A stretch of DNA of 64,000 bases from a virus, in the IMG/VR virus record IMGVR_UViG_3300036857_000203, positions 1-64,000 of that record; one strand, written 5' to 3'. The translations under genes and the position numbers were made by a program. Below the pieces are notes generated by a model. The model searched no databases. It had not been told where the DNA came from and saw nothing but the letters and a program-made list of their open reading frames with translations. Shown here one piece after another: positions 14,523 to 60,226 of this stretch; position 1 is the first letter of the stretch, and every line of letters begins with the position of its first letter.

Positions 14523-14972
14523 CTAAGCAGTACGCTCACGCAGCATTGCCTCGATCTCATCACGCAGTTGCTTGCGCGTAATCCCTGGCATGATTTCTTC
14601 GATGATCACGTTGGTGATCTTCTCCGTCAGAAGGCGGAGCTGTTCGTCGCTGATTCGCGTCAGGCTCTTACCCTTGGCCTCGATCTTACGTGTGTGTGGA
14701 TCGTAGATCGCTTTGCTGTAGCCGACACGCACCTTGAACGCTTCCATGGCATGATCCTTGTCGAGAAATTCGTCCGAATTGTTTGCAACAAGATGAACGA
14801 GAGCCCAAAGATACCGTAGCAACTGGATGTTCTTCTCACGTCTGATGGTGGCAGTCACATCGCTGTCCATGGAGATGATATGCAGGTCCTCTTCCGCCAT
14901 TTCAGAGGACGGAAACAATCCGACCTCACCACGATAGTGGGCACGACGCTTTCGAAGAAAGGTTTCGATCAC
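14523..14972 (-). CDS. NinB/DUF1367-like recombination accessory protein
   Basis: GTG start after AGGAGG. RREKNIQLLRYLWAL..FKVRVGY..KSLTRISDEQ. Located downstream of the ERF gene. Confidence 0.6.
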   Translation of the reverse strand: MIETFLRKRRAHYRGEVGLFPSSEMAEEDLHIISMDSDVTATIRREKNIQLLRYLWALVHLVANNSDEFLDKDHAMEAFKVRVGYSKAIYDPHTRKIEAKGKSLTRISDEQLRLLTEKITNVIIEEIMPGITRKQLRDEIEAMLRERTA

Positions 14973-14987
14973 GTCGCGCCCCTCCTT

Positions 14988-15069
14988 GCCTGCCTCACCT
15001 CGCCGAGCCAAGCCACACCGAGGCCTGTCTTGCCGTGACGAGCCAAGCCGAGCCGAGCCGCGCCATGAA
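14988..15069 (-). ncRNA. Stand-alone GGC-NN guide unit B (14 pentamers plus GGCAGGC end)
   Basis: Intergenic minus-strand sequence AT GGC GC GGC TC GGC TC GGC TT GGC TC GTC AC GGC AA GAC AG GCC TC GGT GT GGC TT GGC TC GGC GA GGT GA GGCA GGC; same grammar as the main array. Confidence 0.8.
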
Positions 15070-15075
15070 CGGGCA

Positions 15076-16212
15076 TCATTGGGTGCTCGGCAACCCTCCG
15101 CCCGTATCCTCATCATCCGGCGGATTGAGCCGCATCTCGGTGCGCTGCCATTCCGCCATCAGCATGCTCCAGTCGCTCTCATCAAAGTCGTTCTCGCGTG
15201 GGGCGACATACTGGTTCCAGAACGCCTCGGCAGCTTCCATGCTTTGCAGCTGGGCGAGTTGATTGGCGACCCAGTTCAGCGCCTCGCCTGGGTCGCTCGG
15301 CATGTTGCCGCCGCCGACCTCCGACAGGTCATTGAGCCGGCGTCCAGTCGCGGCCTGAATCATGTCGTAGGTGCCGGGGAAGTTATCGCTGATGTTCTGC
15401 AAGATCGGCTCGTTGATCGCATCCCAGGCTCTCACCTCGTCCACCGACTGCGCCTTGCCGATGTAGCGGATGAAGGCGCTCGCCCACTCATCTGGGCCCT
15501 TGCCCTGGCCAAGCACGATGCGATGCGGCTTGCTGTCGTCTGGTGTTGTCTGCGCGGGCGCCGTCTCGGCTGGCCGCTGCGAGGGCCCCGGCACCGGAGC
15601 CTTCTCCTGACGCTGATTCGCGTCCTCGTCTACATCGGGGAAGTCACCGGCAGGCACCTGGAACAAGGCCAGCAGGAAGTATTTGCGCGCGTTGGTGTGG
15701 CACTTGGCGACCGCCTTCTCGTCCCAGTTGCCCTTGCGATCGCGCGAGATGCACACCCCTGTGAAGCGCGGCTTCTCGGGCCATACCTCGCCCGATGAGT
15801 GGAGGATGCTGAACTCGTAGGTGACCGCGAGCCGGTTGCCCTCCAGTATCTCCTTGGAGACCTCGTTCTGGATCACGGCCAGACCAGCGGCGCCCATCAG
15901 CGGCGTCACCGCATAGAGCACGTCCTCCATGCGGGCATAGTTGTAGCCGAAGTACTCGTTCCGGCCCCGCTTCTCGATGGTATCGACCTTGGACATGACG
16001 GCGGCGATGGCGCCGGCAATGTGCCCGACCGGTGAGCGAAAGAACGGCGTTTCGCTGCGCGGAGCCACCGGGCCACCGTTGGTCTTCTGCGGGAGGGCCT
16101 GCTGCTCGCGCACGGCAATGGCGCGCTGAGCAATACCGCCGCCGAGGCCGCCCGGGCTCGGCTCTTTAGGCGTTGGGCTTGGAACGAGGGGCCGGCGTGG
16201 GGTGGTGGTCAT
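15076..16212 (-). CDS. ERF-family single-strand annealing recombinase
   Basis: IEKRGRNEYFGYNYARMEDV..GLAVIQ..KAVAKCHTNARKYFLLALFQVPAGD. Confidence 0.85.
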   Translation of the reverse strand: MTTTPRRPLVPSPTPKEPSPGGLGGGIAQRAIAVREQQALPQKTNGGPVAPRSETPFFRSPVGHIAGAIAAVMSKVDTIEKRGRNEYFGYNYARMEDVLYAVTPLMGAAGLAVIQNEVSKEILEGNRLAVTYEFSILHSSGEVWPEKPRFTGVCISRDRKGNWDEKAVAKCHTNARKYFLLALFQVPAGDFPDVDEDANQRQEKAPVPGPSQRPAETAPAQTTPDDSKPHRIVLGQGKGPDEWASAFIRYIGKAQSVDEVRAWDAINEPILQNISDNFPGTYDMIQAATGRRLNDLSEVGGGNMPSDPGEALNWVANQLAQLQSMEAAEAFWNQYVAPRENDFDESDWSMLMAEWQRTEMRLNPPDDEDTGGGLPSTQ

Positions 16213-23593: not shown

Positions 23594-24152
23594 GCCTGCC
23601 AAGCCCGGCCAGGACTGAACGCACCAAGCCAAGCCCGGCCCTGCCTTGCCTCGCCTCGCCAAGCCCTAGCTAGCCGGGCCAGGACTGCCACGCCAAGCCA
23701 AGCCCTGTCAGGTCCTGGCGTGCCGTGCCTTGCCGTGCCGTGCCTGCCGGGCCAAGCCGTGCCTGTCCGAGGCCTGCCGCGTCTTGCCGGGCCTAGCCCT
23801 GCCGGGCCTGCCGCGACATGCCGCGTCTTGTCAGGTCGGGACATGCCGGGCCATACCGCGCCCGCCTTGCCTCAACTGCCGCGACATGCCGAGCCTGGAC
23901 CTGCCATGTCCAGCCGTCCGAGCCGGGCCAATGCCACGCCTGCCGAGCCAAGCCAGCGTCGGGCCAAGGCATGCCGTGACATGTCATCCACGTAGATGAC
24001 GTGCCTGCCATGCCCCGCCTTGCCGCGCACCGCCGGGCCGAGCCTCGCCGGGCCAAGCCCCGCCGCACCGGGCCTGCCGGGCCGCGCCATGCCGAGCCAC
24101 GTCCCACCGGGACGCGCCACGCCAAGCCGCGCCGAGCCTGCGTTACCGTGCC
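23594..24152 (-). ncRNA. GGC-NN pentamer array: eight 59-70 nt guide-like units plus a 19-nt remnant
   Basis: The minus strand reads GGC-NN with 5-nt period (minor GGT/GTC/GAC/GCC variants). Register is reset by a 4-nt GGCA step. Units: 24075-24138, 24006-24074, 23941-24005, 23877-23940, 23809-23876, 23745-23808, 23686-23744, 23616-23685. Starts about 8 nt after the stop codon of 24161-24691. Confidence 0.85.
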
Positions 24153-24160
24153 TAAGACTT

Positions 24161-24691
24161 CTACCGTTGGGCCGCAGCCCTCGGTCTCTCCCCCGGCCGC
24201 CGACGCGGCGGCTGCGGGCGAGATGGCGGTTTCTTCTCGTCGTCTTTGCCAAGCTCATTCACGATGCTGTCGAGCCGGGCGTAGAACTCGCTTTCCAGTT
24301 TGGTTGTTCGCGCATGACCATGTGCATCGACCAGCAAGTTGCGGACTCGATCCATGAGCACTGCCAGGATGCGCGAGTTCTTCTCCTTCGTTGCACTCGC
24401 AACATCGACGTACGTGCCGACCGCCGACCTGGGATCGGGGTCGTGCCGATATCGCGGAAGCACGCGCGAGAGATCGATGTCGTTGATCTCGGGACGGGGA
24501 CAGCTACGGATGATCTCCTCGGCACGCGCCAAGAGATACCTTCGATGAACTCGCGCCGGGTCCCAATCGAACAACTTGTTCAACTCGCTGTTCTGATCCC
24601 TCCCCGCCTCCACGACATCGCGTGCGTTGATCGTGCCGTTACCGTCGCGCAGCTCATCGAGTGCGGTGATCTGCTCGGTCGTAAGATTCAT
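24161..24691 (-). CDS. Accessory protein of the RAMP-array locus (unknown function)
   Basis: Overlaps the RAMP stop codon by 4 nt. GTINARDVVEAGRDQNSELNKLFDWD..YLLARAEEIIR. Confidence 0.8.
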   Translation of the reverse strand: MNLTTEQITALDELRDGNGTINARDVVEAGRDQNSELNKLFDWDPARVHRRYLLARAEEIIRSCPRPEINDIDLSRVLPRYRHDPDPRSAVGTYVDVASATKEKNSRILAVLMDRVRNLLVDAHGHARTTKLESEFYARLDSIVNELGKDDEKKPPSRPQPPRRRPGERPRAAAQR

Positions 24692-25506
24692 GTGCTCGCT
24701 CCTGGTTGCTCGGGTTGATCGCTTGAACGAGAGCGCGTTACGGGATCGCGCCGCCGCATCACCTCAGCGTCGTACCAGCCCAGCAAGTCGGCGCTCTCTT
24801 CGTCAGCGAACGATGGATCATCGAGCGCTGCGAGCTGTGCCTCGCGCCCCTCTTTCTCGACAATGTCCATCCATTCGGGATGATCGTGGCTCACGACATC
24901 CCAGGAGCCGAAAGAGAATGCGCCGCGTTCCTGGCGCCCGTCGCCGACACCGACAATCATGCCGGCGTTCATCGCTAGATTGAGCACGTCGTCGAGCGTG
25001 ATCAGGTCGCGCACATAGCGAAAGCTCATGGAGCACGCCCAGCGCGGGAAGTAGGCGCGCGTGCGGATGTCGGGCGTCTTGGCGATGCCGGCCTGCCGCA
25101 CCATCGACATGTGCAGCTGCGGGATGCCGTACAGGAAGATCGTCGGCGTGGTTACGGTAATGAGCCGGCCCACTTCCGCTCGTGTTGCGCCCGGCGTGTC
25201 GACTGCCGCCTGGGCGAGCGCTTTCTTGATGCTGTTGCCGGGGAGGTGGACGGCGGCTGGCGCATCGGCGTCGCGGCAGCGATAGACCGAGGCGCGGAAC
25301 TCTTCGAGCGGATCGTGCTTGAGGGTGGCTGCGCGTGCTGCCCGGTTGGGAGCGCGTGGGGGGAGGAGTATCTGGCGCTTCGCCTTCTCGGTGAAGCGGT
25401 TCATCACGAGCGCGCTTGTGCCCAGGAGATGGAGAGTCGCGCCCACCATCTGCAATCGACTGATGAGCGGGCGCTCCGCACCAGTCTGCTTTGCCGCTTT
25501 CGCCAT
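24688..25506 (-). CDS. Cas7/Csm3-like RAMP-fold RNA-binding protein
   Basis: RAMP hallmarks: N-terminal strand ATLHLLGTSALVM, HLPGNSIKKAL (cf. IPGSSLKG of Csm3/Cmr RAMPs), a long insertion MVRQAGIAKTPDIRTR, and a C-terminal Gly-rich loop GMIVGVGDGRQERGAFSFGSW. Confidence 0.75.
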   Translation of the reverse strand: MAKAAKQTGAERPLISRLQMVGATLHLLGTSALVMNRFTEKAKRQILLPPRAPNRAARAATLKHDPLEEFRASVYRCRDADAPAAVHLPGNSIKKALAQAAVDTPGATRAEVGRLITVTTPTIFLYGIPQLHMSMVRQAGIAKTPDIRTRAYFPRWACSMSFRYVRDLITLDDVLNLAMNAGMIVGVGDGRQERGAFSFGSWDVVSHDHPEWMDIVEKEGREAQLAALDDPSFADEESADLLGWYDAEVMRRRDPVTRSRSSDQPEQPGAST

Positions 25507-58219: not shown

Positions 58220-60226
58220 ATGAACGGCAGCGTCGAGATCGTCAACCTGGAGATCACGAGCTTCCTGGTCGAGGCCGATCTCCTGCTCGTGCCCGGTCCC
58301 GAGTTCGTTGAGGTCCAGGTCGACATCGGTCCGGTCGGTCCGGTCGGCCCGGCAGGGCCTGTCGGTCCCGTGGGTCCTATGGGGGAGACGGGTCCTCCCG
58401 GCCCGGATGGTGCTCCCGGGGGTCCCGGCCCGGCCGGCGCGGATGGTGCGGTTGGTCCGCAAGGGCCGGTCGGCGCCACGGGCGCTACCGGAGCGACCGG
58501 AGCGACTGGTCCGCAGGGTGATACCGGCCCGCAAGGCCCGGTCGGCGACCAGGGTCCTGCTGGCTCGACCGGGCCGCAGGGTCCGCAAGGGGTGCCCGGT
58601 ACGCCCGGGGCAACCGGGCCACAGGGGCCGCAGGGCGATACTGGCCCCGCAGGGCCGCCGGGACCGGGCAACGTCATCAGTGTCGGCACACCGGTCGCTG
58701 GTCAGGTCGCCGAGTGGACTGACGCCACGCACATCCAGGGTGTCAGCACCTACGCCAAGCTCGCCTCACCCGCGCTGACTGGAACGCCGACCGTCCCGAC
58801 TGCGGCGCCCGGTACCAACACCACCCAGGCTGCCAGCACTGCCTACGTCACCGCCGCCGACAATGCGGTGAAGACCCAGCTCATCGGCTCTGCCAGCTCT
58901 GGCATGGACACGTTGGGCGAGATCGAGAACTACATCCTCGCCAACATCAATCCTGTGCTCGGCAACAAGGCGGACATCAATTCGCCGACCCTGACAGGAG
59001 ACCCGAAGAGCGTAACCCCCGCTACTTCAGATAACGATACCTCCATTGCCACCACAGCCTACGTCAAGTCCAACCTCGCCAACTATCAGCCGCTCGATGC
59101 TGATCTCACGGCAATCGCGGCGCTGACTGGCACCAATGTCATCTATTACAGGTCCGCCGCCAACACTTGGTCGCCGGTCACCATTGGCACCGGGCTGACG
59201 TTCAGCTCGGGTACGCTGTCGGCGCCATCTGGTGGCGGCAACGTATCCAACGTCGGCACACCTACCAACGGTCAGTGGGCGCGCTGGACCTCGGCGACGA
59301 CCATCGAAGGGGTGGCAGCAGGTTCGACCGGCTTCGTGCTGAAGACCGGCGATACTATGTCGGGGACGCTTACTGTCATCCCGACCGGCAGCACCGATGG
59401 CGTGCTTCTGAGTGGTGTCACGACGCAGGCCCGCGTCCAGGCCACCGGCGGCACCGACGTCAGTTTGTTGCACGCCAGCAAGGGTACAGGGGCGCATTAT
59501 TTCTACACCAATGGCTTCAGCAATCTGCAAGCCGTGATCATCCATCAGACAACTAGTTCTGCGTATCTGCAAATCTCGGGCGGCGACGGCGTCACTAATT
59601 TATCGATGTCTAATGGCAGTAATGTTAGGGCGACGACGCCTGCCGCTGCGTCGAATGACACGAGCATTGCAACGACGGCGTGGGTGCAGGCCGCGATCCC
59701 CAAGGGTACTTTGGTGCAGATCGCGCGGGCGGATGTGTCGAGTGCGGTGGCGACGGTGGACTTCACATCAGGGATTAATACGACCTACGATGAATATGAG
59801 ATACATTACTTTAATGTGCGGGGTAATGTAGAAAACTCACTGCTGTTTCAAATCAGCCAAGATGGTGGGGCGACCTGGAAAGCAGATGGAAACTATCAAT
59901 ATGGTGGGTTTGCAGTTGGCTCTCTCGGTTCGCCGAGTTGGCTTCAACAAACGGCTTCAACTGGTGGGATAGCGTCTTACCCAACTGTCGCGGTAACGAG
60001 TAATGGGGCAATTAATGGAACTCTCAAGATGTGGAAGCCTAATTTGAACCAATTCAATATGATTATGGTTGATGCGGTGTCACACTATTCGGCCAGTTCA
60101 TTTACTCGTATCAGTATTGCCAATGGTTATGCGGGAAATACAAACGGATTTAATGCTATTCGTTTCTTCGTTAGTGGTAGCAACATCACGCAAGGCACCT
60201 TCATCCTATACGGGATCAAGAAATGA
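58220..60226 (+). CDS. Tail fibre with collagen-like GXY repeats
   Basis: Long G-X-Y run at about 58328-58668; three TxxxxxNxTxxAxTAxV fibre repeats; AT-rich C-terminal tip. Confidence 0.88.

Follow-up and report, generated by a model that had tools for sequence, protein, structure and literature searches.

A pentamer repeat between erf and a NinB-like gene

We analysed the first 64,000 nucleotides (the window) of the virus record IMGVR_UViG_3300036857_000203, which as a whole is the 72,435-bp genome, complete by CheckV estimate, of an uncultured soil phage. Between erf, the gene for an ERF-family single-strand annealing protein, and a NinB-like gene lies an 80-base repeat of five-letter units, here called guide B, and its relation to the VIPR systems of phages is the subject of this report. 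VIPR has been in print since April 2026 (bioRxiv 10.64898/2026.04.26.720920) and comprises Vipr, which is a phage-encoded minimal RAMP, together with vap and vrRNA. The vrRNAs are described there as 9–16 GGY/NN (YNNGG) repeats that read double-stranded DNA through the NN dinucleotides alone, with one target base skipped per unit; the skipped bases are usually wobble positions and the targets lie in competing phages (10.64898/2026.04.26.720920). A vrRNA is further characterised as a small RNA, at most about 100 nt long, that co-purifies with Vipr and directs sequence-specific dsDNA binding and silencing of transcription. The locus contains the following features.

14523–14972, minus strand: NinB/Orf-like gene of 149 aa with a GTG start at 14970–14972 (phrog_319, E = 6.7e-7; no Pfam match)
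14981–14987, minus strand: Shine-Dalgarno-like AAGGAGG, directly after guide B, 8 nt before the GTG start and inside the inserted segment
14988–14994, minus strand: GGCAGGC end motif of guide B, made up of the last unit GGCAG plus GC
14990–15064, minus strand: guide B body of 15 GGY-NN pentamers, 12 with canonical GGY and three degenerate (GTC, GAC, GCC), the last being GGCAG
15065–15066, minus strand: dinucleotide AT, directly 5' of the first GGC of guide B and the first dinucleotide in RNA order
15076–16212, minus strand: erf, immediately upstream in the same operon (PF04404, E = 5e-18; phrog_155, E = 2.4e-26)

Read from 15064 down to 14990, units 1–8 are GGCGC GGCTC GGCTC GGCTT GGCTC GTCAC GGCAA GACAG and units 9–15 are GCCTC GGTGT GGCTT GGCTC GGCGA GGTGA GGCAG, and a pentamer caller gave a conformity of 0.93 over the 15 units. 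The pentamers begin 11 nt after the erf stop (15076–15078, minus strand), and the AT preceding them also fits the invariant Met codon of the guide B targets described below. The spacer between erf and ninB measures 103 nt and is the sole sizeable gap in this leftward operon, in which neighbouring genes overlap or abut. We regard the GTG at 14970–14972 as the true ninB start, because homologues begin at the same MIETFL. The first-pass annotation had placed the unit between the ERF and NinB-like genes, had noted that its GGCAGGC end runs into the ribosome-binding site, and had read off its plus-strand NN series; all of this was borne out by the sequence, with the unit itself on the minus strand. 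A 598-bp contig that carries guide B and most of ninB is present in identical form among the DNA contigs of a run from a second study.

The GGCAGGC heptamer is not rare, occurring 24 times in the window against 26 expected. Its significance lies not in scarcity but in its in-register position at unit ends, and the units of an array elsewhere in the genome (the resident array) end in the same in-register GGCAGGC, with a 4-nt GGCA step. The scaffold itself is enriched: four successive GGCNN units matched 125 times in the window against 40 expected, none of 100 shuffles gave as many, and the matches cluster in three places, namely guide B, the resident array and a second detached guide (guide C). 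There was no Rfam match at the gathering threshold in the window. The pentamer rhythm seems to run on for three to four units past the GGCA step (GGCAA GGAGG GGCGC GACGT; 14973–14994, minus strand), across the ribosome-binding site to the start codon, and may be either the vestige of a second unit turned ribosome-binding site or a chance effect.

Guide B matches the NinB-like genes of related phages

Matches were scored by the one-nucleotide-skip rule, with the NN dinucleotides read (30 bases for 15 units) and 80%, or 24/30, as the target threshold. In the published systems the working threshold is likewise an NN match of at least 80%, with no self match above it (10.64898/2026.04.26.720920). 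In the phage's own genome guide B has one partial match, in the gene next to it.

14746–14789, minus strand: partial self-match of guide B (21/30 nt, 8/15 dinucleotides) at codons 62–76 of the NinB-like gene, in codon phase

At this site, where the first-pass annotation had counted the same 8/15 dinucleotides and 21/30 nt, the guide B vrRNA would pair with the coding strand. It is the single best one-nucleotide-skip match on both strands of the genome, the runner-up scoring 18, and the maxima for skips of 0, 1 and 2 nt were 18, 21 and 17, while a skip of 3 found guide B itself alone. A maximum of at least 21 was reached in the same genome by 16 of 500 guides shuffled in dinucleotide order and by 4 of 500 shuffled by base. 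Taken alone, therefore, the self-match is modestly unusual and only suggestive. It becomes convincing because it is sited in the next gene and in codon phase, and because homologues of that gene match far better. The target window is conserved but falls short of the most conserved (rank 23/135).

The NinB-like homologues numbered 36 by protein search, and a second search gave 56 matches that overlap the first set. Scans with the homologue alignment yielded 66 related loci (374,704 bases), 55 from metagenomes (L001–L055) and 11 from IMG/VR (L056–L066). The best one-nucleotide-skip match of guide B lay on the gene strand, 150–200 nt past the match start, in 61/66 loci, and it coincided with the homologous site, as recognised by a visible motif, in 64/66, the exceptions being the truncated L055 and the distant L066. 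In 58/66 loci the match was in phase with the ninB frame, at an offset of 180 or 183 from the match start. Four loci scored 27/30, one 26, 22 scored 25 and 11 scored 24, so that 38/66 loci, or 31 of the 53 distinct site sequences, reached at least 24/30. The own allele thus scores below many of its relatives, and the proposal in the first-pass annotation, that guide B matches a homologue of the downstream gene, held when homologues of 14523–14972 were collected and scored with the gapped pattern.

Over the same 66 loci, 200 shuffled guides gave a maximum of 23 and none reached 24. Other skip lengths (0, 2 or 3 nt) scored at most 20 in L001–L055 and at most 19 in L056–L066. In L001 and L002 the 13 consecutive dinucleotides on the 5' side of the guide RNA fit perfectly, at 26/26 bases. 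Across the 51 distinct homologous sites, the skipped position had a mean entropy of 1.38 bits, and the two read positions had 0.60 and 0.51 bits. The agreement extends to the protein level: among the 62 homologues with a locatable site, the best (P0015, P0157 and P0167) fit 14/15 of the residues decoded from guide B and close homologues fit 10–14 of the 15, against 8/15 for the phage's own protein. As far as sequence comparison can tell, the NN dinucleotides of guide B spell codon positions 1 and 2 of the conserved codons 62–76, in the version of ninB that colinear sibling phages carry.

These matches bear on the simplest alternative, that guide B is functionless, a tandem repeat that arose by chance or through slippage. 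Tandem Repeats Finder does report guide B as a weak period-5 repeat (score 38), and GGCAGGC is common in G+C-rich DNA. Scores of 27/30 and 26/26 in homologues, set against a shuffle maximum of 23, contradict a chance origin, and the same scaffold adjoins the Vipr gene in the same genome, so that this explanation is hardly credible. Protein-binding triplet repeats of the TRAP-like or other kinds, G-quadruplex runs and rut-like sites had also been entertained as readings of the repeat, and were abandoned because the NN series proved to be a code.

The exact 30-base gapped pattern had no match in viral contigs, nor did its 26-base version. A single NinB-like protein used as query found no related loci in viral contigs, and the homologue alignment found none in genome contigs. 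A degenerate motif pattern also had no match in genome contigs, and no host or prophage was identified. Searched with tblastn, the NinB-like protein had no match in isolated phages. The array units and guide C gave no match of at least 18/20 in the ninB-centred loci.

VIPR genes and other guides in the same genome

The presumed protein partner of guide B and the remaining guides lie elsewhere in the window.

23596–24138, minus strand: resident staggered vrRNA array of about 550 nt with GGCA-GGC steps, 3' of the operon of vipr and its partner gene
24161–24691, minus strand: partner gene of 176 aa, in vap position
24688–25506, minus strand: vipr, encoding a 272-aa RAMP protein; 9,624 nt from guide B and the only copy in the genome
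33552–33611, plus strand: guide C, the second detached guide, 60 nt

A profile built from 58 homologues of the 272-aa protein detected the Vipr chain of SUSP1 (36pp_D, E = 6.4e-7), the sole match below E = 0.2, which covers only a 50-residue G-loop stretch. The AF2 model made from the alignment reached a pLDDT of 89.7 (36.7 from the single sequence), and Foldseek matched it to 32 PDB entries at E <= 0.001, with RAMP subunits of type III Csm/Cmr complexes on top. Among isolated phages, tblastn with Vipr found matches in five Gordonia phage records alone, at 28–30% identity. Judged from the profile and the predicted model, the 272-aa protein, which had been described as a RAMP on first inspection, qualifies as a Vipr homologue with a RAMP fold. 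The partner gene had no Pfam or PHROG match and no meaningful PDB match, its Atlas matches were viral hypothetical clusters alone, and none of these searches found a nuclease in it.

In published staggered arrays each vrRNA begins where the preceding one finishes, the two sharing 1 nt (legend of fig. S18, 10.64898/2026.04.26.720920), and the GGCA-GGC steps of the resident array fit this description. The third unit of the array (23980–24005, minus strand) contains an inverted repeat, GTCATC-TACGTG-GATGAC, together with register slips, and is unlike the neighbouring units.

Proposed role of guide B and comparison with published systems

Guide B is most probably a detached vrRNA gene of the phage's own VIPR system, aimed at the ninB gene of sibling phages. 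It would be transcribed within the leftward exonuclease–erf–ninB operon. Each pentamer would bind one protomer of Vipr, made from the operon 9.6 kb away, which would cover the GGY triplet and display the NN dinucleotide, and the complex would then be trimmed. By analogy with the work on SUSP1 and P. fulva, the ribonucleoprotein would bind the ninB site in the DNA of a co-infecting or resident rival, with the vrRNA on the coding strand, and the bound complex would block transcription of the rival's recombination operon. The phage's own allele differs from guide B at 9/30 read bases, and it is expected to be spared because this 70% match is below the published 80% level for targets. There is no self-target of at least 80%, and when all guides are taken in windows of 10 units, their scores in the phage's own genome stay below 18/20.

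Several observations weigh against this interpretation. The 80% threshold was derived from VIPR types other than the clade with the 272-aa Vipr. None of the sampled alleles fits all 15 guide B dinucleotides. The three bases at which L001 and L002 differ from guide B all fall within the two 3'-most units, and the two 3'-most units of guide B likewise set it apart from the SUSP1 type, in that they mismatch the sampled targets. Since assembly and unwinding in SUSP1 proceed from the 3' end, as seen by cryo-electron microscopy (10.64898/2026.04.26.720927), L001 and L002 might be poorer targets than their scores indicate. We found no promoter-like or terminator-like site within the unit. There is also no structured tail, the fold of 14960–15085 having a z-score of -0.26, whereas type II vrRNAs (SUSP1 and P. 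fulva) carry an invariant 3' pseudoknot tail.

Signs that the own allele has escaped locally are likewise slight. Three of its residues in the target are rare in the family (N64 in 2/36, E68 in 1/36 and H74 in 2/36 homologues). Differences from L001 at codon positions 1 and 2 amount to 6/26 in the target and 35/270 outside it (p = 0.13), and rare residues to 3/15 inside and 10/134 outside (p = 0.13). Local escape of the own allele is therefore only a trend, non-significant in either test. Furthermore, NinB/Orf is dispensable in lambda, and the harm that a rival would suffer from the silencing of a NinB-like gene near the end of its operon is not obvious.

With the published VIPR systems (10.64898/2026.04.26.720920), guide B shares the GGY/NN scaffold with a unit count in the range of 9–16, wobble-aligned coding targets read with a one-nucleotide skip, predicted targets in competitor phages, and the absence of a self match of 80% or more; the resident array shares with them units that end at the next start. 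It differs in lying outside the vipr locus, 9.6 kb away in another operon, and in having no recognisable tail. Guide B ends in the motif of the resident array's units, yet no further unit comes after it. SUSP1 Vipr is about 200 aa long, against 272 aa here. In the SUSP1-type systems (type II; 10.64898/2026.04.26.720927) one protomer binds per repeat, with GGY sequestered and NN presented, an arrangement that guide B would share.

Guide B also resembles the solo vrRNAs reported from F5 satellites and from VIPR-null phages of the SUSP1 family (10.64898/2026.10.15.759431). Both are single guides off the array, aimed at relatives and wobble-aligned, with a self-match lower than the non-self match. 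However, guide B is not 'solo' by the published definition, which requires that no Vipr lie within 20 kb (10.64898/2026.10.15.759431); here the distance is 9.6 kb. Solo vrRNAs sit at vipr-vap1 deletions or on satellites and carry the pseudoknot tail (10.64898/2026.10.15.759431), while guide B is tailless. Their targets are vipr, vrRNAs, satellites and host decoys, whereas guide B corresponds to the gene adjoining it.

Guides directed at relatives, wobble alignment, and a weaker match to self than to non-self have already been published. The main-text passages searched in 10.64898/2026.04.26.720920 and 10.64898/2026.10.15.759431 do not describe a VIPR-positive phage that has a guide in a different operon, directly beside the spared allele of its target, or the repeated use of one junction for such guides. 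Published VIPR rests mainly on enterobacterial and Pseudomonas phages, and the phage analysed here belongs to an uncultured soil lineage with a longer Vipr. If guide B acts as proposed, single guides of a VIPR-positive phage can be dispersed among its other operons.

Insertion and recurrence at the erf–ninB junction

Over the exonuclease–erf–ninB–lysis region, four loci (L001, L002, L003 and L056) align colinearly with the window at 71–82% nucleotide identity, and they lack the guide B unit, since the alignments break at about 15110 and 14970. An ERF C-terminal motif was found upstream of ninB in 44 of the 60 loci with enough upstream sequence. In 23/44 the erf stop and the ninB start overlap or are no more than 12 nt apart, and the other 21 hold 84–2214 nt of other content. 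Because the junction is so often tight or translationally coupled in relatives, guide B with its own ribosome-binding site is, on this comparative reading, an insertion at the erf–ninB junction. A search of five related virus records, of which four have a completeness of 90% or more, found no Vipr; its control recovered the phage's own Vipr (E = 5e-116).

The same junction holds guides in other loci. At L009:597–661 there is a different guide of 13 units, which ends 15 nt before the ninB start and spells a GEVGLFPNNPMA-type motif of NinB-like genes, at about codons 13–25. It scores 24/26 in L019 and L039, 23/26 in four further loci, and 17/26 on its own allele. In L007 a complete VIPR locus of another type (L007:634–2281) is wedged between erf and ninB, in the order array, 197-aa Vipr, 166-aa gene and two arrays of 28 and 36 units, the last of which ends 3 nt before the ninB start. 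The 197-aa Vipr matches SUSP1 Vipr over its full length (E = 7e-15), and each unit of the locus terminates in GGCAGGG, after which comes an A/T-rich spacer. The guides in the L007 and L010 arrays gave no match of at least 18/20 in the collected loci. The recurrent use of the erf–ninB junction, by a single guide in the window and in L009 and by a whole locus in L007, suggests rules for where guides land and for what reason, and it singles out the NinB/Orf-like recombination gene as one targeted repeatedly in conflicts between phages.

Three further observations concern this region in relatives. At L032:880–1070 (minus strand), just upstream of ninB and on the opposite strand to it, there are degenerate units that match a third ninB motif; the score is 16–17/18 in a dozen loci, and L032's own gene gives 16/18. 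These units may be a decayed guide, which would otherwise be self-targeting. L010:92–734 contains six consecutive guide units of 13–30 pentamers each, separated by GGCAGGG and short A/T-rich spacers, upstream of a relative's exonuclease gene, and vipr would lie beyond the end of that contig. At L049:3916–4000, as in L050 and L051, the 85-nt gap between erf and ninB is an open reading frame for a tiny, very hydrophobic peptide of about 30 aa, with no guide, and the junction thus accepts varied small inserts.

The history of the junction raises the alternative that guide B is a relic, left over from a VIPR locus or guide that once stood there, and unused by the resident 272-aa Vipr. The variability of the insertion spot (21/44 loci with other content), the whole locus of a different, 197-aa Vipr type in L007, the degenerate GGY in 3 of the 15 guide B units, and the degenerate units upstream of ninB in L032 would all accord with such an origin. 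Against it, guide B ends in the GGCAGGC of the resident array and not in the GGCAGGG plus A/T-rich spacer of L007 and L010, and 13 consecutive dinucleotides are still perfect against extant alleles. Moreover, degenerate internal units are frequent in working vrRNAs (10.64898/2026.04.26.720920, methods), and the sequence is identical in the run of the second study. We therefore consider a relic unlikely.

A role in cis, raised as a further possibility by the first-pass annotation, is suggested circumstantially by the same geometry: coating or processing by Vipr at the ribosome-binding site could set the level of the phage's own NinB, or the 70% match could autoregulate weakly, with rivals of secondary importance. 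Guide B stands in place of a translationally coupled junction and directly abuts AAGGAGG (0 nt), the L007 array and the L009 guide also end close to the ninB start, and a unit that lacks both a promoter and a terminator has to be part of the mRNA. Yet an NN series that reproduces foreign alleles at 26/26 in codon phase would be superfluous in an element acting purely in cis. A site with 9/30 mismatches is also unlikely to be bound, because disturbed NN pairing abolished silencing (10.64898/2026.04.26.720920, Results). Regulation in cis as the main function is thus quite improbable, and it is compatible, as a side effect, with a vrRNA directed at sibling ninB.

Possible linkage of guides and spared alleles

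If guide B is a weapon against sibling ninB, its placement beside the spared allele would keep weapon and immunity together through recombination. It is possible, though somewhat short of probable, that the guide and the allele it spares constitute a linked cassette of weapon and antidote. A guide directed at a conserved motif would be safe only where the phage's own allele has escaped, so that selection would keep it within about 1 kb of the resistant allele. Among mosaic, recombination-proficient phages, a recombinant that takes up the guide would also gain immunity, and the pair would spread in the phage population like poison-antidote or homing elements. With all guides taken in 12-unit windows, four sites in the phage's own genome score 18/24 or more as partial self-matches, and three of the four lie 0.3–1.1 kb from their guides (guide B and ninB, 0.3 kb; guide C and a neighbouring gene, 0.5 kb; array unit 1 and vipr, about 1 kb). 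These three, the L009 guide with its spared allele (17/26) and the third motif matched in L032 lend support to such linkage. It is absent from the main-text passages searched in 10.64898/2026.04.26.720920 and 10.64898/2026.10.15.759431.

Virus-borne mini-CRISPR arrays act against related viruses, and free-standing homing endonucleases adjoin cleavage-resistant alleles. With both, guide B would share the principle of a weapon against the relatives' version of a gene to which the carrier's own copy is insensitive, and with homing endonucleases also the position of the weapon beside the resistant allele. The recognition chemistry of both differs from that of VIPR. No break-driven gene conversion is implied here, because published VIPR of this kind silences and does not cut. 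Guide B and its neighbour would provide a clean natural example in which a few non-synonymous changes in the carrier's allele separate self from non-self.

The fourth partial self-match, of array unit 2, scores 18/24 at 58583–58617, 34 kb from the array, and is probably due to chance. A diverged relative, a 4,735-bp contig (run X1, record 2), co-occurs in the probable source sample; over the region corresponding to 14667–15185 of the window, which runs from the 5' part of ninB across the guide into the 3' end of erf, it has 698 letters against 517 in the window.

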